Source of the DNA: a virus
Taxonomy: Duplodnaviria; Heunggongvirae; Uroviricota; Caudoviricetes
Length of the DNA stretch: 64,000 bases
Strand: one strand, 5' to 3'
Virus record (IMG/VR): IMGVR_UViG_3300029288_000055
Coordinates: 170,764-234,763 of that record
The notes under the pieces were generated by a model, which saw only the letters and a program-made list of their open reading frames with translations, searched no databases and had not been told where the DNA came from. A program made the translations under genes and the position numbers. Shown here piece by piece: positions 24,954 to 60,995 of the stretch (the stretch's first letter is position 1; each line of letters begins with the position of its first letter).

Positions 24954-24984
24954 TTTGTATTTATGATTTTAATGTATATCTTTG
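24954..24984 (+). promoter_or_regulatory. Bacteroidota primary-sigma promoter, tRNA operon A
   Basis: TTTG(24954)-N19-TATCTTTG(24977). Confidence 0.8.
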
Positions 24985-25018
24985 CGAAGAGTTTTTAATA
25001 AATGTTATTTGTAAGACG

Positions 25019-25093
25019 ATGAAAAATTTAATAAACATAGTACCACAACCCCAACAGCATCCACAAAGTTTGGAATGGGGAAACTATGCTTAA
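25019..25093 (+). CDS. leader peptide A, MKNLINIVPQPQQHPQSLEWGNYA
   Basis: Eight consecutive Pro/Gln/His codons; located between promoter and terminator. Confidence 0.85.
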   Translation: MKNLINIVPQPQQHPQSLEWGNYA

Positions 25094-25124
25094 ATTTTTC
25101 ACAGGAAAATTTTTTAGGTTAGAC

Positions 25125-25155
25125 AAACCCCATTCATATTGAGTGGGGTTTTTTT
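25125..25155 (+). terminator. attenuator terminator A
   Basis: aaaccccattca-tat-tgagtggggttt plus T-tract; 5' arm complementary to leader gaatgggg (25073-25080). Confidence 0.85.
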
Positions 25156-25180
25156 ATGGTGTTCGTTGAAATATTTTTAT

Positions 25181-25275
25181 CAGGGTGTGAGCGAGTTGGT
25201 TGAAGCTGCTGGTCTTGGAAACCAGTCACGACACAAAGGTGTTGTCGTGCGTGGGTTCGAACCCCACCACCCTGA
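25181..25275 (+). tRNA. tRNA-Pro(TGG), long variable arm
   Basis: cagggtg/caccctg acceptor, ctggt-cttggaa-accag, C1-G72 and A73. Confidence 0.8.
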
Positions 25276-25331
25276 CGTTAGAGGATTAACTATATATGAC
25301 TGTACTTGGGACTGGCAAATTAGTAATATTT

Positions 25332-25407
25332 CGAGTAGTTGGGGAGTTGGTCACCCCGCCACATTTGGGATGTGGAGAACTCGCAGGTTCGAATCCTGCC
25401 TACTCGA
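25332..25407 (+). tRNA. tRNA-Pro(TGG)
   Basis: cgagtag/ctactcg, ccaca-tttggga-tgtgg. Confidence 0.88.
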
Positions 25408-25409
25408 CT

Positions 25410-25486
25410 GTGCTAAGTGTAGATGTTGGCATTCTTCACCTGACTGTGAATCAGGGTTTCGTGGGTTCGATTCCCATTTAGCACCA
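25410..25486 (+). tRNA. tRNA-His(GTG), irregular acceptor/D junction
   Basis: cctga-ctgtgaa-tcagg; T arm gtggg-ttcgatt-cccat. Confidence 0.7.
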
Positions 25487-25519
25487 AAAAGCGTGATAAA
25501 AGCGTTTATCACGGAATTA

Positions 25520-25595
25520 CGGGATATAGTTCAGTTGGTAGAATGGGTGCTTTGGGAGCATCAGGTCGTCAGTTCGAGTCTGGCTATCCCGACCA
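25520..25595 (+). tRNA. tRNA-Pro(TGG)
   Basis: cgggata/tatcccg, ggtgc-tttggga-gcatc, encoded CCA. Confidence 0.92.
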
Positions 25596-25598
25596 CAT

Positions 25599-25675
25599 GG
25601 TGATTGTAGAGGAATTGGTAAACTCGCCTGACTGTGAATCAGGTATTTGCGGGTTCGACCCCCGTCCTTCACCCA
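25599..25675 (+). tRNA. tRNA-His(GTG)
   Basis: G-1 start, cctga-ctgtgaa-tcagg, C73. Confidence 0.85.
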
Positions 25676-25755
25676 GCATCGTTTGGCGAACGATATGAAT
25701 CGGTTTCTTAATGCCCTGATCGCAGGGTGGCGTATAGTTGAAGCATCGCCTACAT

Positions 25756-25829
25756 TGCCACATGGCGCAATTGGCTAACGCACCTGACTCTGAATCAGAA
25801 GATTGTAGGTTCGACTCCTACTGTGGCAA
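25756..25829 (+). tRNA. tRNA-Gln(CTG)
   Basis: tgccaca/tgtggca, loop ctctgaa. Confidence 0.88.
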
Positions 25830-25836
25830 CAACAAA

Positions 25837-25941
25837 TTATACCCGATCAGGACTATGAATTCATATGAAATTTACATAAAATTCTGGGTATTAATGTCTT
25901 AGCAAAAACGCTAAAATTACGATAGTCCTGATCGGGTATAA
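25837..25941. repeat. perfect 20-bp inverted repeat in a tRNA spacer
   Basis: ttatacccgatcaggactat ... atagtcctgatcgggtataa. Confidence 0.9.
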
Positions 25942-25953
25942 AATAGTATAAAC

Positions 25954-26037
25954 TGTCCTTTGGCAGAATGGTTATTGCATCGGTCTTTGAAGCCGACACC
26001 CCCAACGGGTTTGTAGGTTCGAATCCTACAGGGACAA
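25954..26037 (+). tRNA. tRNA-Gln(TTG), long variable arm
   Basis: tgtcctt/agggaca, tcggt-ctttgaa-gccga, variable stem accc/gggt. Confidence 0.82.
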
Positions 26038-26085
26038 CTTTTTTAATGTTCTTTGATATTTCATAATTATTATTACCTTTGCAAA

Positions 26086-26862
26086 ATGTATTATGTAGTT
26101 CAGGAAAATGTATTCAGGGAAGAAAATTATGACAATTTAATATTGGCATTGGATAAACTTACCTTACCATATGAAATTGTCAAAGTTAAACCCTTTATTG
26201 AAACATTCAGAATACATACCAGAAGAAAAGATATCTTTCCTTTTGGTTCATTGAAAATGGCAAGAATATCAGCGAAACGTGGCTGGCGACCCGGTTCTCA
26301 AATGAATGCTAATCACGATTATTTGGTTTATCGTGACTATTATAAAGAAAATCTTTTGAATTATGATTCACACATACAGAAATTTGGTGATGATTTTTTC
26401 AGTAAAGAAACGTTCTTTGCACGACCAACACAAGATACGAAAGTATTTACAGGAAAGGTCTTTGACATGCAAGAATGGCGAGAATTTGTGGCATATTCTC
26501 TTACTAACGGTCATAGTACCTTATTGAATATTGACACTGAAATTCAAATATGTTCAGTAAAAAAGATTCAACAAGAGATCAGGTTCTGGATTGTTAAAGG
26601 TGAAATTGTTACCGCAAGTCAATATAGACTTGGAAACAGATTGGTGCTTAGTGAAAATGTTGATCAGGCAGCTTATGACTACTGTAAGAAAATGGTTGAC
26701 ATATTTCAATTGAACGATGCTTTTGTAATGGATTTAGCTTTAACTGAAAATGGATATAAAATCATTGAATGTGGTTGCATTAATTGCGCTGGATTTTATA
26801 AAGCAAATATGCAGAAACTTTTAATGAAACTTGAAGATAGTTTTAATTGTCCTATGGTGTAA
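26086..26862 (+). CDS. ATP-grasp protein (DUF4343/R2K-like)
   Basis: FFARP..DTKVFTGKVF, EIRFWIVKGEIVTASQY, FVMDLA...KIIECGCINCAGFY. Confidence 0.75.
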   Translation: MYYVVQENVFREENYDNLILALDKLTLPYEIVKVKPFIETFRIHTRRKDIFPFGSLKMARISAKRGWRPGSQMNANHDYLVYRDYYKENLLNYDSHIQKFGDDFFSKETFFARPTQDTKVFTGKVFDMQEWREFVAYSLTNGHSTLLNIDTEIQICSVKKIQQEIRFWIVKGEIVTASQYRLGNRLVLSENVDQAAYDYCKKMVDIFQLNDAFVMDLALTENGYKIIECGCINCAGFYKANMQKLLMKLEDSFNCPMV

Positions 26863-26921
26863 TTGGTTAACACGTTGGATTTTGATTCCAAAGAGTCGGG
26901 GTTCGAGTCCCTGTAGGACAA
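26848..26921 (+). tRNA. tRNA-Gln(TTG)
   Basis: tgtccta/taggaca, ttgga-ttttgat-tccaa. Confidence 0.9.
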
Positions 26922-27078
26922 CAAATTTTTATGGTTATGAGCAAATTAAGAGTAGGTAATAAACAAAATGCAATTCTAAATGGTGAATGGGCAGGACACA
27001 TGCGCAAGTGGGGAAAATTCTTCACCGCCAAAATACGTAGAAATGTAGATAAGAAAATAATAAGAAACGAAATTAAAA

Positions 27079-29325: not shown

Positions 29326-29355
29326 TTTGTATTTATGAAAAATTGATTATCTTTG
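29326..29355 (+). promoter_or_regulatory. Bacteroidota primary-sigma promoter, tRNA operon B
   Basis: TTTG(29326)-N18-TATCTTTG(29348). Confidence 0.75.
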
Positions 29356-29389: not shown

Positions 29390-29482
29390 ATGAAAAATTT
29401 ATTCGACATATTGGTAGCAGTCCTCATGGTGGATGTCCTATTATGGGCAGCCGAAGAGGATGATCTATGCGTAGTCGGGTAA
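29390..29482 (+). CDS. leader peptide B, MKNLFDILVAVLMVDVLLWAAEEDDLCVVG
   Basis: Residues 8-26 are all L/V/A/M/D/W/E. Confidence 0.85.
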   Translation: MKNLFDILVAVLMVDVLLWAAEEDDLCVVG

Positions 29483-29519: not shown

Positions 29520-29559
29520 AAACCCGACTACCCTAAATTTAGTCGGGTTTTTTGTTTTT
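29520..29559 (+). terminator. attenuator terminator B
   Basis: aaacccgacta/tagtcgggttt plus T-tract; 5' arm complementary to leader gtagtcgggt (29471-29480). Confidence 0.88.
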
Positions 29560-29570: not shown

Positions 29571-29582
29571 GTTCTTTGACAT
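29571..29582 (+). promoter_or_regulatory. boxA-like antitermination element
   Basis: GTTCTTTGACAT just after the terminator; near-identical copy at 55626. Confidence 0.55.
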
Positions 29583-29593
29583 GTTGGAATTTT

Positions 29594-29672
29594 GGTGCTG
29601 GGGTCTGCTTGGTGTGGACGCATGACTGTCACTCATGATATCAGGAGGGTTCGATTCCCTTCAGCACCGCCA
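29594..29672 (+). tRNA. tRNA-Asp(GTC)
   Basis: ggtgctg/cagcacc, catga-ctgtcac-tcatg, G73, CCA. Confidence 0.88.
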
Positions 29673-29781
29673 TTCTCAACCGAAAGCAAGTAGGTTACTG
29701 GTGAAGCGGAGATCGTGACTCCAACCTTGATGGTTCGTTCCTGAGAGGGCATGGTTGCAAAAAACAGTTTGGGGATATTTT

Positions 29782-29854
29782 CGAGGCTGTGGTGTAATGG
29801 CTAACATACCTGACTGTCACTCAGGTGTCTGGGGTTCGAGTCCCCCGGTCTCGG
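29782..29854 (+). tRNA. tRNA-Asp(GTC), apparent 8/4 fold
   Basis: cgaggctg/cggtctcg acceptor, gggg/cccc T stem, cctga-ctgtcac-tcagg. Confidence 0.8.
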
Positions 29855-30031
29855 CACATTTTTACTGCCAAAGCAGTAAAAAATAAAAATTTGAGGTAAA
29901 AAGTATCGTTAATATCACTTTTTTATTTACTTTTACCGTTTTGGCAGTAAAAAACGACTATTTGTTAAGAAATAATAATTTGTTTCAAATAAAGTGCATT
30001 ATTTTGCACTAAATAAATTAATAAAGTATTT

Positions 30032-30634
30032 ATGAATATGAATGAAAATATTATATATGGTTTAAAAGACCCAAGGACTGATGAATATAAGTATGTTGGT
30101 AAATCAATAAAAGGAATCGAAAGAGCAAACTCACACTTAACACATTCTCATAATCCATTGGTTAATGAGTGGATTAATGAACTTAAAATGGATAGTTATG
30201 TTCCACTTGTTGTTATTTTGGAAAATGTTTCTGATTGGACACAATTGATCGATAAAGAAAAATATTGGGTCGGGAAATTAACCGATGAAGAACACGATTT
30301 ATTTAACATTTTAATTACAGATTCATATAACAATACGCTGGATTCCTATAATAAGAAATTGATACAACAAATAAAAGATAGGGAAAAAGTGTTAAATGAA
30401 AAGTTAAATAAATCATTAATGCAATTCGGTAGTGAATCAGATGTTGGTGATTTAATAAAAAGAAGACGTAAAACTCTAAAAGTAACACAACAACAACTTG
30501 CAGATATTTCTGGGGTTGGGTTACGAACAATAAAACTAATTGAATTAAACAAATCAAATGCGACTATTAATACTTTAATGAAAATATTTGATACTTTAGG
30601 TTATGAACTTTTCATTAACTTAAAAACAAAATAA
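30032..30634 (+). CDS. GIY-YIG-like endonuclease fused to an XRE-type HTH
   Basis: IIYGLKDPRTDEYKYVGKS...R..H...EKYW; C-terminal TQQQLADISGVGLRTIKLIE. Confidence 0.7.
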   Translation: MNMNENIIYGLKDPRTDEYKYVGKSIKGIERANSHLTHSHNPLVNEWINELKMDSYVPLVVILENVSDWTQLIDKEKYWVGKLTDEEHDLFNILITDSYNNTLDSYNKKLIQQIKDREKVLNEKLNKSLMQFGSESDVGDLIKRRRKTLKVTQQQLADISGVGLRTIKLIELNKSNATINTLMKIFDTLGYELFINLKTK

Positions 30635-30637
30635 TAT

Positions 30638-30720
30638 GCTGCGTTATACAAGCGACTAAAGTAGACAGACCTTCAATCTGTCATCGAAAGATTTCGTGGG
30701 TTTGAATCCCACACGCAGTA
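30638..30720 (+). tRNA. tRNA-Glu(TTC), C33, long variable arm
   Basis: gctgcgt/acgcagt, acaga-ccttcaa-tctgt, variant T loop tttgaat. Confidence 0.7.
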
Positions 30721-30817
30721 CGATGTTGAGGTGGTATTACACGGGGAAAAGAAAGTCCCTGCTGATAATCTAAAAAATGTGGACAGCATGTGGGTATAAA
30801 TCCCGCCAACTACACCT

Positions 30818-30889
30818 GCTCGATTCTTCTAATGGAAAGGAAAGCTGACTCTCAATCAGTTAACGGCAGTTCGATTCTGCCATCGAGTA
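30818..30889 (+). tRNA. tRNA-Glu(CTC)
   Basis: gctcgat/atcgagt, gctga-ctctcaa-tcagt. Confidence 0.85.
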
Positions 30890-30894
30890 CAAAT

Positions 30895-30969
30895 GCTCGG
30901 TTCGTCTAAGGGTTAGGATGTAAGACCTTCAATCTTAAAATACGGGTTCGATTCCCGTACCGAGTACCA
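30895..30969 (+). tRNA. tRNA-Glu(TTC), C33
   Basis: gctcggt/accgagt, taaga-ccttcaa-tctta, CCA. Confidence 0.85.
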
Positions 30970-31084
30970 AAATGGGGCATAAAAACCCCAGATGTTAAGT
31001 AAATGGGGAAAATATGCCCCATACTACAAAAATGTAGTATATTATCAACAAAAATGCCAGTTATGATGATAATATACAACAAAT

Positions 31085-31173
31085 GCACTTTTAGCTCAGT
31101 CTGGTTCAGAGCGCAACCCTTACAAGGTTGAGGCGAATAGTTCACGGGGGTTCGAATCCCTCAAAGTGCACCA
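31085..31173 (+). tRNA. tRNA-Val(TAC), long variable region
   Basis: gcacttt/aaagtgc, caacc-cttacaa-ggttg, CCA. Confidence 0.85.
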
Positions 31174-31175
31174 AT

Positions 31176-31251
31176 GCTCTTTTAGCTCAGTTGGGTCAGT
31201 AGCGTCTGTTTTACAAGCAGAAGGTCGTAGGTTCGAAGCCTACAGGGAGCA
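31176..31251 (+). tRNA. tRNA-Val(TAC)
   Basis: gctcttt/agggagc, tctgt-tttacaa-gcaga. Confidence 0.87.
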
Positions 31252-31363
31252 CAAAGGTCCGCACACAGGGGCGGACCTTAAATATAGGTAAAATAACCGA
31301 TATAATGCATTTATCGGTTGTAGAGGCGATAAAGAGTATTTATCGTGTGTAGAATGCATAAAC

Positions 31364-31445
31364 GTCCATATGTTGTAATTGGTAGCCAAGCTGGTCTAAG
31401 AAGCCAGTGCCGTAAGGCGTGTCGGTTCGACTCCGACTATGGACA
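31364..31445 (+). tRNA. tRNA-Leu(AAG)
   Basis: gtccata/tatggac, ctggt-ctaagaa-gccag, variable arm gcc-gtaa-ggc, A73. Confidence 0.85.
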
Positions 31446-31454
31446 CAACAAAAC

Positions 31455-31529
31455 GCAGGTGTAGCCGAATGGTCAAGAGGCAGCAGTTTTAGAAACTGAA
31501 ATTTGCGGGTTCGACTCCCGCCACCTGTA
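31455..31529 (+). tRNA. tRNA-Leu(TAG), short variable loop
   Basis: gcaggtg/cacctgt, cagt-tttagaa-actg. Confidence 0.8.
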
Positions 31530-31594
31530 CAAACGTTCTCTTTGAGTAGTAATATTCATTAAATTTGGTAGCAATATCAAGTAGGGAACACCAA

Positions 31595-31670
31595 GCGGAT
31601 GTGCTGGAACTGGTATACGGGTTGGCTTCAGACACCAATATTAATGAGGGTTCGAGTCCCTTCATCCGCA
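31595..31670 (+). tRNA. tRNA-Leu(CAG), short variable loop
   Basis: gcggatg/catccgc, Leu-type D loop, ttggc-ttcagac-accaa. Confidence 0.75.
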
Positions 31671-31748
31671 CCGACCTTATTCTGGATAACGAAGCAAATA
31701 GTTCCAGACACTCAGTCCTGAAGTCATGGTTCAGGAGTAAGGACAACT

Positions 31749-31821
31749 GCCCCGTTGACGTAATCGGCAACCGTATCAGTCTTAAAAGCTGAGTTTCACA
31801 GTTCGAATCTGTGACGGGGTA
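31749..31821 (+). tRNA. tRNA-Leu(TAA), short variable loop
   Basis: gccccgt/acggggt, tcagt-cttaaaa-gctga. Confidence 0.8.
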
Positions 31822-31956
31822 CAAAGGTGAATGCTGTTACTTATTTGCAGTAGTAACACCACCTGTGCCGAATAACTTGTAGAGAGGAAAGTAGTACTTT
31901 TCAATACTTTGTGGATTGCAAATATACATTGGTTGAGTTATTAAAAAGGCACACAC

Positions 31957-32026
31957 GGGCGTAAGAGTAATTCTCTGTAAGTCGGGTTGATCACCGAAGT
32001 AGGTTAAAATCCTACTACGTTCACCA
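31957..32026 (+). pseudogene. degenerate tRNA-like element
   Basis: gggcgta/tacgttc acceptor plus ACCA; gtagg-ttaaaat-cctac T-like arm; irregular anticodon arm. Confidence 0.45.
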
Positions 32027-32027
32027 C

Positions 32028-32101
32028 GGGGTCGTGGCTCAATTGGCTAAAGCATCTGCCTTGCACGCAGAGGACTGTGGGTTCGAGTCCCACCGACTCC
32101 A
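32028..32101 (+). tRNA. tRNA-Ala(TGC)
   Basis: G3:U70, tctgc-cttgcac-gcaga. Confidence 0.92.
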
Positions 32102-32138
32102 CAAACAAAGGTCCGCAAATATTTGCGGACCTTTACTT

Positions 32139-32212
32139 GGGGCATTCGCTTAGTTGGCTAAAGCATCTGTTTTGCAAGCAGAAGATCGTGGGTTCAACTC
32201 CCACATGCTCCA
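32139..32212 (+). tRNA. tRNA-Ala(TGC)
   Basis: G3:U70, tctgt-tttgcaa-gcaga. Confidence 0.9.
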
Positions 32213-32329
32213 CACAATCCATAATAATAAGGCAAGTAACAAATCTTGTGTTCGTGGGAACAACATGTCCGTGCGTGCGCAGGGATAAATTGGTTGATGC
32301 TCCAATCGTGCCCACGAAGGGTTGCACTT

Positions 32330-32416
32330 GTAGGTGTATTCCGTAATGGCGAAATTGGTTATGTCATCCATGTAACAAGGGTTGGAATGTTAGAGGTTCG
32401 AGTCCTTTCATCTACA
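32330..32416 (+). pseudogene. degenerate tRNA-like element
   Basis: gtaggtg/catctac acceptor, agagg-ttcgagt-ccttt T arm, anticodon unclear. Confidence 0.45.
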
Positions 32417-32422
32417 CAAACA

Positions 32423-32501
32423 ACGGATTTAACATAGTGGCAAGTGTTGCACCTTAAGTCCTGCGTGGCTGGTAACGGTGGTTCGATTCCATCAATCTGT
32501 T
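32423..32501 (+). pseudogene. degenerate tRNA-like element
   Basis: acggatt/aatctgt acceptor, D stem acat/gtgt, T arm ggtgg-ttcgatt-ccatc, weak anticodon stem. Confidence 0.5.
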
Positions 32502-32510
32502 GTTAAAAAT

Positions 32511-32593
32511 ACGCAAGTTGCCGAGTGGTTAAAGGCACGGGTCTCCAAAACCCGCAGAGAAATCTTTCGTGGGTCCAAATCCTACCTTGCGTG
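32511..32593 (+). tRNA. tRNA-Trp(CCA), long variable arm
   Basis: acgcaag/cttgcgt, cgggt-ctccaaa-acccg, G73. Confidence 0.75.
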
Positions 32594-32604
32594 CAAATTA
32601 AAAT

Positions 32605-32676
32605 GCGTCTGTCGTCTAATGGCTAAGACAACGGCTTCCAAACCCGTGAATAAGGTTTCGATTACTTTCAGACGTG
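32605..32676 (+). tRNA. tRNA-Trp(CCA)
   Basis: gcgtctg/cagacgt, loop ttccaaa, G73. Confidence 0.78.
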
Positions 32677-32727
32677 CTAAAATCAGATAATTATGAAAAC
32701 GCAAAAAGCAATGTGCATCCTAAAAGG

Positions 32728-33144
32728 ATGCTTACCAGAGAAGAAAAAAGACGTAGAAGACATAGTGATGAATTCAACAGAATTTTCACATTTTTCTTAA
32801 AGTCTTATCGCTACAAAATACTTGATTTTTCAGGTATTGAAGTGAAAACAAATATGGACATTAATGAAGACGATGGTAAAGTCTGTTTCAAAAATTTTGA
32901 CAACGGTGAATACAAAAGCATGAATTCAATGCCAACCAGACATCCAAACATATTGAAGGGTGTAATTGTTGGAAAAAAATCATGGGGTTTACATGTAAAG
33001 ATGTGGTCTGAAGGTATCTCCGAAGGTACATTTACCAAAAGAGAAATCTTACAACAATTTATAGATAATAAGATTGAAATACCAGAGCCATTTCTAATTG
33101 ATCTTGATAACACAATATTAAAGAAATTTCGAATGAAGCAATAG
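32728..33144 (+). CDS. hypothetical protein
   Basis: ORF; ATG chosen downstream of the tRNA. Confidence 0.45.
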   Translation: MLTREEKRRRRHSDEFNRIFTFFLKSYRYKILDFSGIEVKTNMDINEDDGKVCFKNFDNGEYKSMNSMPTRHPNILKGVIVGKKSWGLHVKMWSEGISEGTFTKREILQQFIDNKIEIPEPFLIDLDNTILKKFRMKQ

Positions 33145-33613
33145 TAAAAATCGCAGGTATGTACTGCAGGTTGGCGTTCTATCCAAAAGAACTAAAAGCA
33201 CAATTACCACTGAGGGCAGTTAATTCTGTACCCAAGAGCAATATCAGTTAGCAGTACACTATTGTTTCAAAAAATTAGAATATTTTGTAACTTTTTGGTT
33301 TTTTCTTCGTATAAAGAGTATTAATTTAATAAGAAAGGAGCAAGTCTTCAAAACACGAATTAAATACAGAGGATGTTGGTGGTGGAAAATTGTACATTAC
33401 AATTATTTTCATAAGAAACTTTTTAAAAATTTTTATGTACAAAAGAAAAAGAAACCATTTACCAATAGAGAAATTAAAAAATATGAACTATATAAAAAAT
33501 TCGATGATTTAATTACATTGAGACGAGTGGATTGGTTAAGAAAGTTTATATTTCTCATTGAGCCATAAATTTTCAGTATTTATTTGTAACATTTTTAATT
33601 AAAAATTATAATA

Positions 33614-34006
33614 ATGAAAAAAATATTATCATTACTTTTATTACTGGTATCCTTGACAGCTTTTTCACAGAGACATCAACACGAAAAATACTATCAGGAT
33701 AAGTTTGCTGAATTAATTTATGGAAGAACAGAAGTTGTTCTTGATGACAGGGCACGTGTTGATATTGTAACTGATACATTTGCAATTGAAGTTGATTTTG
33801 CACCTAAATGGGCAGAAAGTATCGGTCAATCTTTGTATTATGCTGAAAAACTTCACAAAAAAGCAGGTGTTTTATTGATAATAAAAGGAAATGACGATCA
33901 AAGATATACTGAAAGATTAATTACTATCGCAAAAAAATATAATATTACTATTTGGTTTATAGACTATACATCTGAAAAATGGAAGACGAAAAAATTTATA
34001 TTTTAA
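33614..34006 (+). CDS. signal-peptide protein with PD-(D/E)XK-like fold
   Basis: MKKILSLLLLLVSLTAFSQ; RVDIVTDTFAIEVDFAPKWAESIGQSLYYA. Confidence 0.55.
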   Translation: MKKILSLLLLLVSLTAFSQRHQHEKYYQDKFAELIYGRTEVVLDDRARVDIVTDTFAIEVDFAPKWAESIGQSLYYAEKLHKKAGVLLIIKGNDDQRYTERLITIAKKYNITIWFIDYTSEKWKTKKFIF

Positions 34007-34047
34007 TTGTTGTTTTTCTCATTGTAATATATTAAATTTGAGGCATT

Positions 34048-34761
34048 ATGTATATCATTGCAAAGAAAAAGGATTATTATGATGGTGTCGTTGGCACAAT
34101 GGGTGTTGACAAAACATTGGTCTATGAGCGTGAAACTCAAGAATTTGAAGGTGATGACATACCCGTAATATTTGAAAGAAAAAGAGGTTATTGGGGTATG
34201 AATCGTACAAAAACTCCTTTTCATCAAATGAATTATCATCAAATAAAAAAAGAATTTCGAAATGTTTGTGACGAGCACTCATATTTCATTATTGGATTTT
34301 GTGGCAAACTCTACATTGGTTGGAAACTTTACAGAGTAATAAATTCAAATGATGAAGTCAGCACAGAATTCACATATGATAATGAATATATGAAGAAAAT
34401 CTTAGAAGATAAAAGCTGGGATGGTACTCTTAGTGATAGCATTAACTACGTTCAGTCATTTAATGCACTTCAGATTTTTAGGGATTTAAAAAGTCCAGCT
34501 TTTGTGTATGACAGCGATTACGGTAGAACAAAACGTAATAATAATCATCATTCGAAATTCATTATCAATCCATTGTTGAAAAACTATGAATTTTTCAAGA
34601 TGTTTGACAGTTTTCAAGCATTTCAGGAAGTTTCGATGTTTATAGGTGGAGTACTTGGTAAAGGTGAAAAAGAAATAACTGAAGTTGCTGATAAATATAA
34701 GATTACACAACATGGTTTTAATAAATGGTCATTCAGAAAAGAACCAAAAATAAAGAAATAA
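34048..34761 (+). CDS. hypothetical phage protein
   Basis: 237 aa ORF, KDYYD...HGFNKWSFRK. Confidence 0.55.
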   Translation: MYIIAKKKDYYDGVVGTMGVDKTLVYERETQEFEGDDIPVIFERKRGYWGMNRTKTPFHQMNYHQIKKEFRNVCDEHSYFIIGFCGKLYIGWKLYRVINSNDEVSTEFTYDNEYMKKILEDKSWDGTLSDSINYVQSFNALQIFRDLKSPAFVYDSDYGRTKRNNNHHSKFIINPLLKNYEFFKMFDSFQAFQEVSMFIGGVLGKGEKEITEVADKYKITQHGFNKWSFRKEPKIKK

Positions 34762-34762
34762 T

Positions 34763-36155: not shown

Positions 36156-36219
36156 GGTCAAAATTTAAATAAACATTAAATAATTAATTTTTTAATGTTT
36201 GTGGTTCTTTAAAAATATC

Positions 36220-36583: not shown

Positions 36584-36598
36584 CTAATTTGAATTATT

Positions 36599-37021: not shown

Positions 37022-37023
37022 TT

Positions 37024-38007: not shown

Positions 38008-38029
38008 CTATTTATATAAAAATAAAATC

Positions 38030-39077: not shown

Positions 39078-39080
39078 TAT

Positions 39081-39152: not shown

Positions 39153-39153
39153 C

Positions 39154-55215: not shown

Positions 55216-55246
55216 TTTGCAGAAATCAAAACTTTATTTACCTTTG
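55216..55246 (+). promoter_or_regulatory. Bacteroidota primary-sigma promoter, tRNA operon D
   Basis: TTTG(55216)-N19-TACCTTTG(55239). Confidence 0.8.
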
Positions 55247-55287: not shown

Positions 55288-55422
55288 ATGAAAACGTACA
55301 GGAAAATATCAGAAGATTCTACATCGACCTCAAGTCGCAATGGAAATGGTATATTCTGTTCAATTTTTACAGGCAGAAATAATGCAGATACGGGTTCTGG
55401 TTTTAAAGACATTGATTTGTAA
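55288..55422 (+). CDS. leader peptide D, MKTYRKISEDSTSTSSRNGNGIFCSIFTGRNNADTGSGFKDIDL
   Basis: Residues 11-32 are exclusively S/T/R/N/G/I/F/C. Confidence 0.85.
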   Translation: MKTYRKISEDSTSTSSRNGNGIFCSIFTGRNNADTGSGFKDIDL

Positions 55423-55441: not shown

Positions 55442-55473
55442 AAGAACCCGTATCGCAAGATTCGGGTTTTTTT
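55442..55473 (+). terminator. attenuator terminator D
   Basis: aagaacccgtatc-gcaa-gattcgggttttt plus T-tract; 5' arm perfectly complementary to leader gatacgggttct (55387-55398). Confidence 0.88.
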
Positions 55474-55486
55474 GTTCTTTACATAT

Positions 55487-55557
55487 GTCGGGATAGTTCA
55501 GGGGTAGAACGTCTGTGTGGTATTCAGGCAACATCGGTTCGAATCCGATTCTCGGCT
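55487..55557 (+). tRNA. tRNA-Thr(GGT)
   Basis: gtcggga/tctcggc, loop gtggtat. Confidence 0.78.
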
Positions 55558-55649
55558 CAAAAATATAACTCTTACAGGTTATAAACACAAAACATAACCT
55601 TTGCAGGTTATGCAAACTGTAAGACGATCTTTGACATGTTGGAATTTCT

Positions 55650-55730
55650 GAAGGGTTGCCTGAGTGGTTGAAAGGGACGGTCTGCAAAACCGTTAGGAAA
55701 CTCACGTGGGTTCGAATCCCACACCCTTCT
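55650..55730 (+). tRNA. tRNA-Cys(GCA), extended variable arm
   Basis: gaagggt/acccttc, acggt-ctgcaaa-accgt, U73. Confidence 0.85.
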
Positions 55731-55784
55731 CGAAAATTATTTTTGCATAAAGGACTGAAATTCGGTACTTTGTGCAAAAAATCT

Positions 55785-55859
55785 GTTTCGGTAGTGCAAT
55801 AATGGTAAAACGACAGTCTGTTAAACTGCAAGATGTAGGTTCGACTCCTACCCGAAACG
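55785..55859 (+). tRNA. tRNA-Asn(GTT)
   Basis: gtttcgg/ccgaaac, cagt-ctgttaa-actg, G73. Confidence 0.8.
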
Positions 55860-55865
55860 CAATAT

Positions 55866-55942
55866 TGGGACGTATTCCCTCTGTCTGATAAGCAGTTGAA
55901 AGGATAATTGGTCACATGTGGGTTCAATTCCCACCTTCCCAA
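55866..55942 (+). tRNA. tRNA-Ile(GAT)-like, lacking a D arm
   Basis: tgggacg/cttccca, ctgt-ctgataa-gcag, intact T arm, only about 7 nt between acceptor and anticodon stems. Confidence 0.55.
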
Positions 55943-55958
55943 CATAAAAATTTAAAAT

Positions 55959-56031
55959 GGGCGTATCGTCTAACTGGTTAGGATGTGTCTCTGATAAGGA
56001 TACGATGAAGGTTCAAGACCTTCTATGCCCA
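55959..56031 (+). tRNA. tRNA-Ile(GAT)
   Basis: gggcgta/tatgccc, tgtct-ctgataa-ggata. Confidence 0.82.
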
Positions 56032-56158
56032 CAAATCGCAGACGTGCGATCTTATGTTGCAACATAAAACGATTACTTATTGTTAGCATAGCTGGCAATG
56101 CTGCTCTGTGAATGGGTGAAGGTGAGTTCAAGTCTCACAGGTAAGAGTCGTTTTGTAT

Positions 56159-56245
56159 GGAGAGTTGTCCGAGTGGTTGATGGTGGCAGTCTTGAAAACT
56201 GCTGGGCACGCAAGTGCCCCGTGGGTTCGAATCCTACACTCTCCG
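56159..56245 (+). tRNA. tRNA-Ser(TGA)
   Basis: ggagagt/actctcc, gcagt-cttgaaa-actgc, long arm, G73. Confidence 0.92.
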
Positions 56246-56349
56246 CAAATTACAAATGGGAAAGTAGTTAGCGGTACTTAGTTGAGATAGTACTAAGTCG
56301 AGATGCACTGACCACTATTATCGAGTATAATAAAAAGTTTGTAATATTT

Positions 56350-56443
56350 GGATGGTTAAGCAGTTACATTGGAGTGGCGACATGCTTTGAATACATGGTT
56401 TCGATCTAAACAATCGGACGGGGGTCGGGTCCTCAATCATCCG
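56350..56443 (+). pseudogene. degenerate tRNA-Ser(TGA)-like element
   Basis: ggatggt/atcatcc, catg-c-tttgaat-a-catg, long arm, aberrant T loop. Confidence 0.45.
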
Positions 56444-56512
56444 CAGTGCTTTTGGTGTTAACTACTCACAACCGTTTAGCATTTATAATTATAATGGTAA
56501 AAGAGTAGACTT

Positions 56513-56599
56513 GGAGAATTGACAGAGTGGTTATTGTGCCAGTTTGCTAAACTGTGGGCGGTGAAAGCTGCCCCGGGGGTTCGAATCCCTCATTCTCCG
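56513..56599 (+). tRNA. tRNA-Ser(GCT)
   Basis: ggagaat/attctcc, cagt-ttgctaa-actg, long arm. Confidence 0.9.
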
Positions 56600-56673
56600 C
56601 AAAGTCAGGTGCACTGGATTACATCACTTGACCTATGTATCAATATGGTGGTCATGACACTATTGCGGTATAA

Positions 56674-56831
56674 AAGTTCTGGCTTGCATAAGAGGCTGCC
56701 CTAATGTTCGTTGAAGTGAAGGTTTTGTGTTTGTGACTGGCATCACAGAAAACGCAAACTGATTCAGAGAGACATTTAAGAAAGTTGCAATACTATCGGG
56801 AAACGTGAGTATAAGGCTCACACCAGAACTT
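56674..56831 (+). ncRNA. candidate rod-shaped structured RNA
   Basis: Closing stem aagttctgg/ccagaactt; inner stems aatgt/acatt, tttgtgttt/aaacgcaaa, gtga/tcac. Confidence 0.35.
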
Positions 56832-56836
56832 AATTT

Positions 56837-56908
56837 GGAACGGTAACTCAGTGGCAGAGTGCTTCCCTGAAGAGGAAGTGGTCGTGGGTTCGACTCCCAT
56901 TCGTTCCA
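56837..56908 (+). tRNA. tRNA-Phe(GAA), G37
   Basis: ggaacgg/tcgttcc, cttcc-ctgaaga-ggaag. Confidence 0.88.
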
Positions 56909-56914
56909 CAATTT

Positions 56915-56987
56915 GGTGTCGTAGCTCAGTTGGTAGAGCAGTGGACTGAAAATCCACGTGTCACAGGTTCAAATCCTGTCGATACCA
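56915..56987 (+). tRNA. tRNA-Phe(GAA)
   Basis: ggtgtcg/cgatacc, gtgga-ctgaaaa-tccac. Confidence 0.92.
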
Positions 56988-57102
56988 CTCTCTCCGATCT
57001 TGAGGGACTATCCACGTCCCCAATCCAAGGTTGCACGAAGCAAGAATGCCTCCTGCCTCTGTTGCAGGTGAATCCAAGAGGTTCAGCAAAAAGTCGTGGC
57101 AC

Positions 57103-57175
57103 GCAGAAGAAGCTCATGTGGTCGAGTGTCAGCCTTCCAAGCTGAATGTAGCGGGTTCGAATCCCGTCTTCTGCT
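57103..57175 (+). tRNA. tRNA-Gly(TCC)
   Basis: gcagaag/cttctgc, tcagc-cttccaa-gctga, U73. Confidence 0.9.
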
Positions 57176-57283
57176 CAACAATGCTTCCCACGCCTCTGAC
57201 CGATGCCTGTGCAGGTTAGGTTATGCGCATCAGGGTCGCTTTCAGTAGAACTCACTTAATGCACAACAAGTGAGTTCGCCCAT

Positions 57284-57355
57284 GCGGGTATAGCACAACG
57301 GTTAGTGTGTCAGTCTTCCAAACTGAAAATGAGGTTTCGATTACCTCTACCCGCA
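57284..57355 (+). tRNA. tRNA-Gly(TCC)
   Basis: gcgggta/tacccgc, tcagt-cttccaa-actga. Confidence 0.88.
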
Positions 57356-57419
57356 CAAAAATCCTTGTTAATCAAAAAAGAATCGCTATCTTTGTGTTTA
57401 GTTTATAAGATAGCAATAT

Positions 57420-57493
57420 AGTGACGTAGCTAAATGGTGACGGCAGTTGTCTTATAAGCAAAAGATGTGTGGGTTCAAGTCCCACCGTCACTA
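57420..57493 (+). tRNA. tRNA-Ile(TAT)
   Basis: agtgacg/cgtcact, ttgt-cttataa-gcaa, A73. Confidence 0.8.
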
Positions 57494-57497
57494 CAAA

Positions 57498-57707
57498 ATG
57501 AAAGAAATTAATTTGAAATTAGATCACGTACATGTTGAACCAAGAGTAATTAAAACAAATATTACTTGGAAAATTTGTGAATGTCTTTATGATTGCCTTG
57601 ATGATGAATGCGCACAAACACTTGGATTCAGTAACAAAGAAGAATACCGCAGAAAAATGAATAGCAAAAAAGGTTATAAAGAAGTGATCAAAATGATGGG
57701 TAAATAA
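57498..57707 (+). CDS. hypothetical protein
   Basis: ATG after the tRNA. Confidence 0.45.
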   Translation: MKEINLKLDHVHVEPRVIKTNITWKICECLYDCLDDECAQTLGFSNKEEYRRKMNSKKGYKEVIKMMGK

Positions 57708-57708
57708 T

Positions 57709-57780
57709 GCTTCGGTAGCTCAGTGGTAGAGCGTTTGTCTGTTAAACAAAGGGTCGCAGGTTCAATCCCTGCTCGGAGCG
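57709..57780 (+). tRNA. tRNA-Asn(GTT)
   Basis: gcttcgg/tcggagc, tttgt-ctgttaa-acaaa, G73. Confidence 0.9.
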
Positions 57781-57923
57781 CAAATTGAAATAAAAATGTT
57801 TGAATATTCAAAATTAACAGAAAAGCATTTTTTTTGGCTTAGAATTGTACAACTTTTAAATAAAAAGAATGAAAAAGTATTTATTCGTAGGGGAAGAAAG
57901 AAGTAAAATGGACACATAATTAT

Positions 57924-57997
57924 GCCAGAATAACTTTAATTGGTAGAGTAGCTCATTCGTAATGAGAATGTTGCAAGTTCGAGTCTTGCTTCTGGCT
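57924..57997 (+). tRNA. tRNA-Thr(CGT)
   Basis: gccagaa/ttctggc, ctca-ttcgtaa-tgag. Confidence 0.85.
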
Positions 57998-58053
57998 GGC
58001 AATCAATATCAACTTACTTGCACGTAGTGGTTGTTGCACATCAGAAATGATGA

Positions 58054-58719
58054 CTAAATGGTTGATGAGCGTTCTTTGATAATATTTATTATAATATCAA
58101 GATATTTTTGTGACGTTTCAATTTTAAAATATTTTTGTTTTGATGTGTCAATAATACATAAATTGATATCTTTTTCAATACATGCTTGAAATTTACGATT
58201 ATCATTATTTTGAATTTGATTAAGTTTATCTTGACCATAAATAGGTTCATAATGAAATACACCATTTAATTCAAATGCGAGTTTCAATGAAGGTATATAA
58301 ATATCCAATTCAGAATTAATGGCATCTTTATGATTGAATAATATTTTCAATTCGGGATATAATAACTTCAGTTGGTCTTCAAGAAATCTTTCAAGTTTCG
58401 ACCTGCGATTACCATTTGTTTTATGTTTATTATTATATGTTGCAGCACACGAATTTGAACAGAAATTATTTTTATGTATTTGGGATGGTATTTTATAAAA
58501 TAGTGTACCACAATTAATACACACAACTTCTTTCTTTGTTGTTCTACCAATACTTTTACATGTCTTAGAGCAGTATTTTCCAGTGCGTTGCCCATTTAAG
58601 ACTTTTAAAATATCTCGTTTGGACTTATAAAAAATACTTGAACATATTTCACATTCACATGGAAATTTATTGGTTATGTTTGACGTATCGAATTCTTCTT
58701 GGTCGTATAATGAAATCAT
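58054..58719 (-). CDS. free-standing endonuclease (Zn-finger repeats plus Vsr/DUF559-like nuclease)
   Basis: CEIC/YCSKTC/CINC/FCSNSC; SKLE...ELDIYIPSLKLAFELNGVFHY...DNRK. Confidence 0.75.
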   Translation of the reverse strand: MISLYDQEEFDTSNITNKFPCECEICSSIFYKSKRDILKVLNGQRTGKYCSKTCKSIGRTTKKEVVCINCGTLFYKIPSQIHKNNFCSNSCAATYNNKHKTNGNRRSKLERFLEDQLKLLYPELKILFNHKDAINSELDIYIPSLKLAFELNGVFHYEPIYGQDKLNQIQNNDNRKFQACIEKDINLCIIDTSKQKYFKIETSQKYLDIIINIIKERSSTI

Positions 58720-58794
58720 ATTATAATTTTATAATAAATACTTAAAAATTTTCGAAAAATTATTTTCGAATCTTCTTTTTGGCTCAAAATAAAT

Positions 58795-58881
58795 GCCTTC
58801 TTCCTATAGTTGGTCGATTAGACGGGATTTGTAACCCCGCTTTCCACAAGAAACACGTCAGTTCGAATCTGACAGAAGGCT
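58795..58881 (+). tRNA. tRNA-Thr(TGT), long variable arm
   Basis: gccttct/agaaggc, cggga-tttgtaa-ccccg. Confidence 0.8.
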
Positions 58882-58896
58882 CAAATACAAATAATT

Positions 58897-59199
58897 ATGA
58901 GAAACTATCATTTTAGTGAAAAAGAAATTGAAGAATTTTTGAAAAACAATAAAAAAGCAGGTTATGGTGAGCTTAATCATCCATCACCAAATCATGAAGA
59001 AAAGTTTTTAAAGAAACTTCAACTCAGAATGAAAAGTTTTGTTGATCTTACACCTTATTTTGTAAAAGTTGCAATTGTCACAATTATTGTGTTTCTTTGC
59101 TCAATGTTTGTATGGTACAGTTTTATGAGACCAGACAAAAGTAAACCAATAATTGAGAACATTATTGAACAATTTGAAAAGAAAAAAATGCCCTCATAG
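58897..59199 (+). CDS. hypothetical membrane protein
   Basis: One TM segment; stop codon lies inside the downstream tRNA. Confidence 0.5.
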   Translation: MRNYHFSEKEIEEFLKNNKKAGYGELNHPSPNHEEKFLKKLQLRMKSFVDLTPYFVKVAIVTIIVFLCSMFVWYSFMRPDKSKPIIENIIEQFEKKKMPS

Positions 59200-59261
59200 T
59201 TCAACGGATAGAACGGATGTCTTCTAAACAACAAATCGTGGTTCGATTCCACGTGGGGGTA
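59190..59261 (+). tRNA. tRNA-Arg(TCT)
   Basis: gccctca/tgggggt, loop cttctaa, A20. Confidence 0.88.
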
Positions 59262-59576
59262 CTAAAAAAATAAAAAATGAGAACTGTAATTTGTCCCAAA
59301 TGTAACCAAGTAATTGCAGTACCAGATCATAAAGATTTTGTGATTTGTTGTAATGAAGTAATTTATGCGCCTTATGAAACACACGATTGTAAAGATGCAA
59401 TACCCGATGGTGTATGTAGAAAATAAAAAAGAATTTTCAATGGAAGGTTATGCCTTTCTTGATGAAGCAGGAAATACAATAATAATTGTTTACGGAGAAG
59501 GACGCAGAGACGACATGGACAAGTATTTAACTAATGACGGTGATTTAATTAATATCAAATATAAAATTATTGATTT

Positions 59577-59931
59577 ATGCCAAAAACAAAAATCACAATA
59601 ACAATTGAAAGAGACTTTCCATTGAGTGATGAAGAAATTCAAATTGCAATGAATGATATTCAAGCAAAATTACAAGGTTATTATGAAAAAACACCTGACT
59701 GCCTGAAGAAAGTAAAAATGAGTATTGGTTACGATAAAAAATATAACAATGAATAGAGTAAAACTTACGATTAATATCGACAGCGAAAATGAATTAACCG
59801 AAGAACAAATTGTGGAAGCAATGGTTAATATGAAATTCAGATTAGAAGGTTATAGTACTCCATGTCCAGAATTTTTAAAGAATGCGGAAATAGCGATAGA
59901 TAAAAATTATAAAATAACAATGCTCCCATAG
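59577..59931 (+). other. tandem pair of small paralogous CDSs (59577-59756, 59749-59931)
   Basis: TKITITIERDFPLSDEEIQIAM..LQGY..TPDCLK versus VKLTINIDSENELTEEQIVEAM..LEGY..CPEFLK. Confidence 0.55.
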
Positions 59932-59993
59932 TCCAAGGGATAGGGCAACGGTTTCCTAAACCTTAAATGCAGGTTCGAGTCCTGCTGGGAGTA
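59922..59993 (+). tRNA. tRNA-Arg(CCT)
   Basis: gctccca/tgggagt, loop ttcctaa. Confidence 0.88.
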
Positions 59994-60106
59994 CGAAGAA
60001 TAAATTAATATGACACCAAATATTGAAGAATATCAAAAGAAATTAACATTAGAAATAAAAGTTATGACAGTAATTCTCATAATTGTTTTATTTTTGTGTT
60101 TATAAT

Positions 60107-60181
60107 GCCTTTGTAGCATAACGGATAATGCGCTTGTCTTCGAAACAAGGTCTTATGGGGGTTCGAGTCCCTTCAGAGGTA
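60107..60181 (+). tRNA. tRNA-Arg(TCG)
   Basis: gcctttg/cagaggt, cttgt-cttcgaa-acaag. Confidence 0.88.
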
Positions 60182-60306
60182 CAAAATGAAAAAGAAAAAA
60201 ATTATAACAGGAATTACTGTTGCTGAACAAATGCGTAGAGCAAGAAAAATATTAAAAGAACAAGTAATACCTAAAGAAAAATTATATCAAAAACTAAAAA
60301 ACAAAT

Positions 60307-60380
60307 GCTCTCATAGCATAATTGGATAATGCATTTCGCTACGAACGAAAAGAGTGGGGGTTCGAGTCCCTCTGGGGGTA
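60307..60380 (+). tRNA. tRNA-Arg(ACG)
   Basis: gctctca/tgggggt, tttcg-ctacgaa-cgaaa. Confidence 0.9.
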
Positions 60381-60394
60381 CTAATAAAAATAAA

Positions 60395-60888
60395 ATGGAT
60401 GAAGAAAAAGAAGTTGATGAATTATTTGAATTTCTTGCATCTTGGGGAGCACGAAATAATTTTAAATTTGTAGTGCCACATGATGACGAAAAAAATATTG
60501 ACTTTATCAATATTAATTTCAAAACCAATATTATTTATGTTGACGAATTAGGTATTGATGAACCATTAACTGAAGTTGGATAAAAAAAGTAAAAATATGA
60601 AGTATCTCAACACATCGTAATTATCAAGCTACTTTGATAAATGCGATTGAAATGTTATTTAGACAGACAAGTAGCAAAAAACAACTCGTACCAAAAGTAC
60701 CAACAGCAAATGAAGTGGGTATGAAGTACTGGTTGGTGGAAATCACGCTTACGGGTGGTGAAATCCAAAAGTTTTACGTTAGTGCCGAAACACGATTCTT
60801 TGCCGAAGAAAAGGCATATGAGTACACGTATTGGATGGCTAACGAGAAACTTAAAAATAAGTTGAGTACTTTTAGGCTTATGCCTTAA
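60395..60888 (+). other. two small hypothetical CDSs (60395-60583, about 60651-60888)
   Basis: ORFs between tRNAs. Confidence 0.45.
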
Positions 60889-60921
60889 AGGATTAAAATT
60901 GCAGAGGAAACTCTGCAACAT

Positions 60922-60995
60922 GCAGGTGTAGCATAGTGGTAGTGCGTTGGCTTGCCGAGCCGAGGACGAGGGTTCGATTCCCTTCACCTGCTCCA
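60922..60995 (+). tRNA. tRNA-Gly(GCC), G37
   Basis: gcaggtg/cacctgc, ttggc-ttgccga-gccga, U73, CCA. Confidence 0.9.

Follow-up and report, generated by a model that had tools for sequence, protein, structure and literature searches.

Why large phages carry arrays of tRNA genes has long been debated, with codon compensation, replacement of decayed host tRNA and the countering of anticodon nucleases all proposed. The window (the whole stretch of DNA analysed, 64,000 nucleotides) is part of a 363 kb contig of a T4-like jumbo phage whose host is probably a member of the Bacteroidales. A T4-like Gp23 was found on this contig, and PF00562 (RNA polymerase beta) and PF00091 (tubulin, PhuZ) had no match there. 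In a nucleus-forming jumbo phage transcription would be uncoupled from translation; of the marks of such a phage, the contig carries neither a multisubunit RNA polymerase of its own nor a PhuZ tubulin. Searches by blastn and tblastn against a phage collection returned tRNA-level or distant matches only and no cultured close relative. Stop-codon recoding was rejected as a general feature of the phage, coding density barely shifting when TAG or TGA was read through.

ARAGORN located 52 tRNA genes and one tmRNA gene, all on the + strand and arranged in four blocks, A to D (Table 1). Blocks B (9.6 kb) and D (at least 5.5 kb) both contain protein genes, and an HTH gene is located within block B. 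The original prediction held that the blocks divide all 20 amino acids as 3 + 7 + 2 + 8 with no isotype shared, and within the window they have none in common. Past it, the contig carries Ser(GCT), initiator-like Met(CAT) and CTA (amber) tRNA genes with no leader of their own; with these counted, the strict claim holds for elongator tRNAs only. No + strand terminator was detected between block D and these three genes, and block D may extend past the window to include them. Promoter-like sites also lie within block A (at 26074) and block D (at 57387, before Ile(TAT), shared by just 2 of 21 D loci); from these, part of each block could be transcribed outside the control of its cassette.

Every block is headed, in the order that had been predicted, by a promoter (TTTG-N19-20-TAnnTTTG), a short ORF starting with ATG, and a hairpin with a T-tract; among 60 terminators on the contig, only these four follow a promoter and short ORF. 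Four elements of a leader-peptide attenuator were found, namely a short ORF, codons related to the block, a predicted terminator and, 3' of the codons, an exclusive and covarying antiterminator. The observed parts, codon match, complementarity, covariation and spacing argue that the cassettes are very probably four ribosome-mediated transcription attenuators gating the phage tRNA operons; translation of the leaders, the switching, its sign and its trigger are what we infer from them.

Table 1. Positions in the window of the attenuator cassettes, tRNA blocks and associated elements.
Feature	Position	Strand	Remarks
Block A promoter	24954..24984	+	-33 TTTG, -7 TATCTTTG
Leader A	25019..25093	+	24 codons; Pro/Gln/His run at codons 9-16
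Antiterminator segment A	25073..25080	+	Partner 25128-25135, or Pro codons (1:2) if ribosome absent
Terminator A, hairpin and T-tract (predicted)	25128..25157	+	
tRNA block A	25181..26922	+	Pro x3, His x2, Gln x3; R2K ATP-grasp gene within
Block B promoter	29326..29355	+	
Leader B	29390..29482	+	30 codons; Asp/Glu/Val/Leu/Ala/Trp/Met; many codons rare in phage
Antiterminator segment B	29471..29480	+	Partner 29522-29531
Terminator B (predicted)	29523..29555	+	Terminates - strand as well
boxA after terminator B	29571..29589	+	rRNA-operon type
tRNA block B	29594..39153	+	Asp, Glu, Val, Leu, Ala, Trp, elongator-type Met; tmRNA; about a dozen ORFs
tmRNA in block B	36220-36584		
Hairpin just past Met, end of block B	about 39161-39178		
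Block C promoter	44011..44042	+	
Leader C	44081..44173	+	30 codons; Tyr/Lys run at codons 7-16
Antiterminator segment C	44139..44146	+	Partner 44205-44212, or Tyr codons (1:2) if ribosome absent
Terminator C (predicted)	44205..44231	+	
tRNA block C	44370..45076	+	Lys x3, Tyr x2 (ARAGORN)
Block D promoter	55216..55246	+	
Leader D	55288..55422	+	44 codons; Thr/Cys/Asn/Ile/Ser/Phe/Gly/Arg; 19 distinct cognate codons
Antiterminator segment D	55387..55398	+	Partner 55443-55454
Terminator D (predicted)	55447..55474	+	Weak; stem has one mismatch
tRNA block D	55487..60995	+	20 genes; Thr/Cys/Asn/Ile/Ser/Phe/Gly/Arg
boxA before tRNA-Cys, block D	55626..55644	+	18-mer identical to Bacteroidales 16S-23S spacer motif

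The claim that each leader carries codons for the isotypes downstream was borne out for all 3, 7, 2 and 8 of them. Cognate codons make up 8 of the 17 codons lying 5' of the antiterminator segment in A, 21 of 26 in B, 8 of 18 in C and 26 of 32 in D, an enrichment over the phage proteome (binomial P = 2.7e-5, 1.6e-6, 1.3e-3 and 1.9e-5, respectively) obtained with blocks delimited post hoc. The leaders showed no enrichment when tested for codons of the other three blocks.

Complementarity of 8-12 nt to the terminator 5' arm had been proposed, and perfect complements of 8 (A), 10 (B), 8 (C) and 12 nt (D) are present; by this measure of upstream complement to the 5' arm, the leader terminators rank 1-4 among the 60 on the contig. 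The four pairings differ in sequence as stated, except that a GGG core is common to all and CGGG/CCCG to B, C and D. The alternative structures are predicted by folding: 2:3 helices match or exceed the terminators in strength in B, C and D, and a 1:2 hairpin is predicted in A and in the window's C, with none in B or D. A ribosome modelled at the stop codon masks the antiterminator in A and B; in C and D a 15-nt footprint leaves the segment uncovered (mean P(2:3) 0.71 and 0.54), the corresponding means for a 24-nt footprint being 0.56 and 0.33. With the ribosome absent, the antiterminator is the predicted default in B (0.69) and D (0.72). It is favoured even at equilibrium in the window's D, so that termination there would require well-timed coupling, the model calling for a ribosome at codons 32-40 at the moment the terminator of D forms. 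The logic of trp/his/thr/pheST attenuation, which had been invoked for all four cassettes, is supported by the computational tests, save for the missing 1:2 hairpin in B and D.

In the mechanism proposed, host RNA polymerase would initiate at the Bacteroidota promoter and a ribosome would translate the leader behind it. Were the cognate codons read fast, the ribosome would cover the antiterminator segment (in all four cassettes), the terminator would form and the tRNAs would not be made; in A and C the ribosome might alternatively depart, the 1:2 hairpin hiding the segment with the same outcome. Should any tRNA of the block be scarce, the ribosome would lag in the sensing run and the segment would pair with the terminator 5' arm, allowing read-through. 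A boxA accompanies the attenuators of the two long blocks, B and D, where it would then likely recruit the host rRNA antitermination complex. In rRNA operons boxA serves Nus antitermination, and the 18-mer of the block D element recurs in the Bacteroidales 16S-23S spacer, 65-150 nt before the 23S rRNA; in the phage, boxA sits after an attenuator, at the head of tRNA operons. Fresh tRNA would restore decoding speed and shut the switch, a negative feedback in which four sensors span 20 amino acids. The lineage of the likely host supports such a mechanism, since Bacteroidales use hisL-type attenuators: a His-run leader and terminator, in the same layout as the phage cassettes, precede hisG in 5 of 5 Bacteroidales genomes.

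If this mechanism holds, the trigger would probably be functional loss of tRNA during infection, through anticodon nucleases or host tRNA decay, as opposed to starvation or timing. The cassettes may have evolved as a counter-defence against anticodon nucleases, but they would react whenever ribosomes slow on the sensing codons, whatever the cause. An alternative, which we consider unlikely yet worth serious weight, is that the attenuators form a general switch, set by translation rate or timing, or a starvation sensor, all of them opening as host tRNA pools fall and the four-way split giving little selectivity. Selectivity is indeed coarse where B pools seven and D eight amino acids; B and D, reading through by default without a ribosome in the folding predictions, would open on global translation arrest too; and uncharged and cleaved tRNA, to which any attenuator responds alike, could not be distinguished. 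Each leader nevertheless avoids the codons of the other blocks, and a pure timer would need no codon match, whereas in distant phages these amino acids are distributed over as many as seven units, each with its own match and one of them Gln-only. Leader content follows block content in LR745206, LR756500 and phiCbK, which have other partitions; phiCbK is a cultured phage with such a cassette. Across phages with partitions unlike that of the window, 11 of 13 automatically found leaders best matched their own block out of 17, and none of 200,000 permutations reached the leader-block match score. The match was weak or lacking in Lak-A1 and one block of G016, and the cassette scan found none at two LR756500 clusters. 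These exceptions apart, the expectation that leader codons track tRNA content was upheld in the phages with other partitions, as it was in homologous loci.

Those loci provide all four cassettes in relatives (14, 17, 22 and 23 distinct copies for A to D). As predicted, antiterminator and terminator arm covary: a phage's own arm pairs better than that of another phage (permutation P = 0.029, <5e-5, 3e-4 and <5e-5, values that overstate certainty, the relatives being non-independent samples), and double-sided, compensatory pair changes were seen in all four classes. The segment lies at a class median of 66-75 nt from the T-tract in all four. Sensing codons stop 4-6 codons 5' of the antiterminator, and the cognate fraction drops 3-5 codons before the GGG core (sharply in A, B and C, more gradually in D), which coincides with the position where the modelled ribosome starts to cover the segment. 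Leader changes are mostly at third positions, with substitutions remaining within the cognate set; inspection gave no evidence that individual codons follow the exact anticodons from one relative to another. In L045 a Lys/Tyr leader before a Leu call looked like an exception, but reading the sequence showed that a Tyr had been missed and a Lys miscalled. A model in which RNA folding or a protein antiterminator suffices to determine read-through, with the ORFs as relics or incidental, would suit the strong 2:3 helices of B, C and D and the HTH gene inside block B; it is made very improbable by the conservation of leader frame and start, of third-position bias and of a composition specific to each block, and by the shift of composition with block content between phages.

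Marginally less credible again are functional or arrest peptides that stall through nascent-chain sequence rather than tRNA supply, to which the short conserved motifs LLW (B) and KSYKK (C) might point. The leaders, B and D most of all, retain their composition under a changing order (conservation is stronger in A and C), and their range of synonymous codons is wider than expected from phage usage (B, P = 0.025; D, P = 0.015). The RNA segment accounts for the C-terminal motifs, a leader Trp to Arg change in L095 being accompanied by a compensatory arm change. Chance, for which one could cite the short ORFs and hairpins common in AT-rich intergenic DNA, the post hoc blocks and the similar core of the four terminators, has already been ruled out by conservation and by the tracking seen across phages, and is further opposed by the block-specific codon match, the terminator ranking and the scans of the same kind that found no such cassette at 22 Bacteroidota host tRNA loci or ahead of the tRNAs in the T5 tRNA region, which has several promoters.

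The attenuator reading has close parallels. Leader-peptide attenuators of amino-acid operons include trpL, hisL and the multivalent thrL and ilvL of E. coli, and pheM-pheST places phenylalanyl-tRNA synthetase under feedback from charged tRNA. T-box riboswitches bind uncharged tRNA directly without translation, sense one codon and would not respond to tRNA loss; they are alike in that tRNA status decides between terminator and antiterminator, and T-box control of tRNA genes is a possible precedent. An Rfam search of 24000-64000 gave tRNA and tmRNA matches only, with no T-box at the leaders. Another leader of the amino-acid operon class is pheL (PMC3082878). With that class the phage cassettes share the promoter, the short ORF with regulatory codons and the alternative antiterminator and terminator; they differ in being phage-encoded, in controlling tRNAs rather than biosynthetic enzymes, in covering as many as eight amino acids with a single leader and all 20 with four units, and in the lack of a predicted 1:2 hairpin in B and D. 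They work like attenuators of biosynthesis and synthetase genes but are not members of those families, the downstream genes being tRNAs. As in pheM-pheST, a leader peptide would govern a component of the translation machinery, the phage output being tRNA itself, of many isotypes. A literature search, with most subscription journals outside its coverage, found no description of leader-peptide attenuation of tRNA genes. Phage tRNAs are known in counter-defence, a T5-like tRNA-Tyr countering retron Eco7 PtuAB (PMC11555353) and others having nuclease-resistant anticodon loops (PMC10264068), and the present genes could likewise replace cleaved host tRNAs, block C supplying Lys and Tyr; what those two papers report is a strong promoter or resistant sequence, with attenuation mentioned in neither.

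A feedback sensor ahead of such arrays would mean that tRNAs are made on demand according to decoding speed, and the rival ideas for why arrays are carried could be tested with one reporter, phiCbK permitting a direct test. Leader-peptide attenuation would gain tRNA genes as targets and a genome-wide design for 20 amino acids, and the cassettes would provide naturally occurring multi-codon sensors with which to follow tRNA pools. More tentatively, large phages of unrelated hosts might carry a complete tRNA-surveillance circuit, in which a few translated sensors jointly sample 20 amino acids along with most codons and each turns on its own block, so that the phage would detect which tRNA had been lost to a host anticodon nuclease and replace it on demand. 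If so, leader and block composition would map the tRNA-targeting defences met by each phage clade.

Blocks, promoters, leaders and terminators of all four cassettes were located where the original prediction had put them (see table), and every isotype of each block was represented among the codons of its own leader. Cognate codons upstream of the antiterminator segment, which lies 3' of the sensing codons, numbered 8/17 in A, 21/26 in B, 8/18 in C and 26/32 in D, an enrichment over the phage proteome with P of 2.7e-5, 1.6e-6, 1.3e-3 and 1.9e-5, respectively; by the same comparison, none of the four window leaders was enriched for codons of any other block. Distinct synonymous codons numbered 15 in leader B (11.9 predicted from phage usage, P 0.025) and 19 in leader D (15.0 predicted, P 0.015), and leader B codons were shifted strongly toward rare ones, a shift matched by 0/20000 draws. 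Wide synonymous use in B and D and the rare-codon shift in B are as expected of an isoacceptor-sampling sensor. The cassettes are a real feature and, judged from sequence, are very likely leader-peptide attenuators of the tRNA blocks.

Positions of cassette parts and associated genes (window positions unless a contig or locus is named; C1, phage contig bearing the window; L126, a locus on C1; L053, a locus of a relative)
Feature	Position	Remark
Leader A	25019-25093	24 codons
Segment A	25073-80	perfect complement to terminator 5' arm
Block A	25181-26922	Pro/His/Gln
R2K-clade ATP-grasp gene	26053-26862	inside block A; own promoter-like site
Leader B	29390-29482	30 codons
Segment B	29471-80	perfect complement to terminator 5' arm
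boxA-like motif, core TCTTTGACATGTTGG	29571-29589	3' of terminator B
Block B	29594-39153	Asp/Glu/Val/Leu/Ala/Trp/Met
HTH_3 regulator gene	30032-30634	inside block B
Two odd tRNA-like genes	32330-32502	weak Asp(ATC); one with 8-nt anticodon loop (TAAG)
tmRNA	36220-36584	inside block B
Met(CAT) tRNA	39081	elongator-like (paired first base); closes block B at hairpin
T4 Rnl1-type RNA ligase gene	41529-42614	1.4 kb upstream of leader C
Leader C	44081-44173	30 codons
Segment C	44139-46	perfect complement to terminator 5' arm
Block C	44370-45076	Lys/Tyr
Leader D	55288-55422	44 codons
Segment D	55387-98	perfect complement to terminator 5' arm
Block D	55487-60995	Thr/Cys/Asn/Ile/Ser/Phe/Gly/Arg
boxA-like motif, core TCTTTGACATGTTGG	55626-55644	5' of tRNA-Cys, block D
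HNH/homing endonuclease-like gene	58054-58719 (- strand)	antisense insertion in block D
Ser(GCT), 88-nt initiator-like Met(CAT) and CTA (amber) tRNAs	L126:2174-3390 (C1 236173-237385)	beyond the window
PolyA_pol/CCA-adding-type domain	C1 60144	in 2259-aa frame
AAA_33 kinase domain	C1 355884	
B-type leader of L053	L053:1497-1628	additional N-terminal stretch rich in His/Tyr/Asn/Gln

The proposed complementarity of segment and terminator was borne out in all four cassettes. As a control, each of the 60 terminator-like sites on C1 was scored by the strongest duplex that its 5' arm could form with upstream sequence; the leader terminators took ranks 1-4, at -14.4 to -20.6 kcal/mol against a mean of -8.0 (s.d. 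3.5) for the set, and only these four had a promoter and short ORF upstream. When copies were lined up by the segment's GGG core, the fraction of cognate codons at offset -6 was 0.9-1.0 in all classes; in A, B and C it had dropped by offset -3 to -5, and in D it fell more slowly. Nascent RNA was folded with a blocked ribosome footprint at successive codons, and the antiterminator probability fell from ~0.9-1.0 to zero as the modelled ribosome left the sensing run, at codons 16-17 (A), 25-26 (B), 17 (C) and 31-33 (D). The distance from segment to T-tract was alike across classes (medians 66-75 nt) despite the variable position of the stop codon, and this spacing and the folding geometry fix the predicted sign, in which a lagging ribosome would give read-through. 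A 1:2 hairpin hiding the segment by pairing with the sensing codons was predicted in A and in the window's C; none was predicted in B or D, for which folding gave read-through as the ribosome-free default. The modelled stop-codon ribosome covered the segment in A and B and did not reliably do so in C and D. Here the model is weakest: in D, termination would have to occur during ribosome passage over the segment.

Distinct copies were found in relatives (14 of A, 17 of B, 22 of C and 23 of D), each ahead of the same kind of block. The expected covariation was recovered: segments paired better with their own terminator arm than with a same-class arm from another phage (permutation P 0.029 for A, <5e-5 for B, 3e-4 for C and <5e-5 for D), and own-arm pairing also beat that with other classes' arms and that of codon-shuffled leaders. 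Double-sided pair changes were found in all four classes, with a register chosen separately for each sequence, a procedure biased toward pairing. In locus L095 the segment, 5' arm and 3' arm were altered jointly at the peptide cost of one Trp to Arg change. By pairwise, non-independent counts, third codon positions differed most (A, 654 vs 266/200; B, 1269 vs 786/790; C, 1284 vs 742/754; D, 3051 vs 2362/2775). By the same counts, a cognate residue that had changed became another cognate one far more often than in the background (A, 62% vs 8%; B, 84% vs 34%; C, 42% vs 13%; D, 76% vs 44%). The B-type block of L053 contains Gly(TCC), and a Trp gene was not found in that locus.

Because the partition is inherited within the clade, phages outside it were examined with a composition-blind rule. 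LR745206 carried seven leader-terminator units with a partition differing from the window's (His/Phe/Trp/Lys; Arg/Ser; Glu/Tyr; Ile/Gly/Ala; Asn/Arg/Leu/Val/Ile/Thr/Met; Pro/Asp; Gln), LR756500 one (His/Glu/Val/Trp/Leu) and IMG/VR record G016 two good ones, and Caulobacter phage phiCbK had a 45-codon leader in which 41/44 codons match Pro/Thr/Lys/Leu/His/Ala/Ser. No convincing cassette was found in T5 or Lak-A1 in this survey. That leader content tracks block content was upheld, the own block being the best of 17 for 11/13 external and 4/4 window leaders, a score reached by 0/200000 permutations. Lys is partnered by Tyr in the window and by His/Phe/Trp in LR745206, and the leaders change accordingly.

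The claim that the blocks divide all 20 amino acids with no isotype shared held within the window and, once the sequence past it is counted, for elongator tRNAs only: Ser(GCT) and a second Met(CAT) that bears initiator features (1:72 mismatch and A11:U24, as read from the sequence) lie there with a CTA tRNA. These three have no leader of their own and are possibly on the D transcript. The CTA tRNA is kept in many relatives (L086, L091, L094, L096, L122), and in L053 lies near the Lys/Tyr block; TAG is a minor stop, and coding density gave no sign of general recoding. Part of A and part of D may be transcribed free of this control from promoter-like sites inside them. The odd tRNA-like genes of block B also occur in L127, with similar ones in L095 and L130, and could be decoys, frameshift suppressors or relics. 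tmRNA is charged with Ala, which is among the isotypes sensed by leader B, and would be co-induced with block B upon ribosome stalling.

The boxA-like motif or a near variant was present in 16/17 B, 16/23 D, 4/14 A and 0/22 C copies. The exact 18-mer gave 37 matches in a scan of GTDB genomes, many in Bacteroidales, and in 10/14 matches checked it sat in the 16S-23S spacer directly before 23S rRNA, where the second boxA of rRNA operons normally lies. From this identity, B and D, the two long blocks, probably make use of the host's rRNA antitermination once transcription is past the attenuator.

C1 (362,763 bases, 30.5% GC) lies within a 1.27-Mb bin and has a gene for a T4-like capsid protein (Gp23). 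Neither tubulin nor an RNA polymerase beta subunit was found encoded on the contig, so this jumbo phage probably uses the host polymerase in the cytoplasm. Relatives are common in IMG/VR (ribonucleotide reductase 60-89% identical), some complete at 320-360 kb. Shine-Dalgarno motifs preceded 5/163 C1 genes vs 98/510 on the bin's other contigs, and TAnnTTTG promoters 14/163 vs 4/510. Few Shine-Dalgarno motifs and TAnnTTTG promoters are established Bacteroidota features; C1 was therefore probably binned in error with a bacterium of about 0.9 Mb that uses Shine-Dalgarno motifs, and a member of the Bacteroidota is the probable host of the phage. A hisL-type leader of 15-17 codons, 5-6 of them His, with a terminator preceded hisG in 5/5 Bacteroidota genomes (Parabacteroides, Bacteroides and Ancylomarina), which indicates by sequence that leader-peptide attenuation is in use in the likely host lineage. 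No codon-matched cassette was found at 22 host tRNA loci, a small sample.

The mechanism would be that of classical leader-peptide attenuation, here applied to tRNA genes, a single leader serving as many as eight amino acids and the set covering the entire code; no description of such attenuation of tRNA genes was found in the literature searched. The device would respond to decoding speed irrespective of cause. Loss of tRNA would be a more sensible trigger than amino-acid starvation, since extra tRNA does not cure starvation. PrrC targets tRNA-Lys. Retron Eco7 PtuAB targets tRNA-Tyr, and phage-supplied tRNA rescues (PMC11555353). The Lys plus Tyr content of C, the smallest block, and the RNA ligase, CCA-type and AAA_33 domains of the phage are suggestive only of a link to tRNA-targeting defences.
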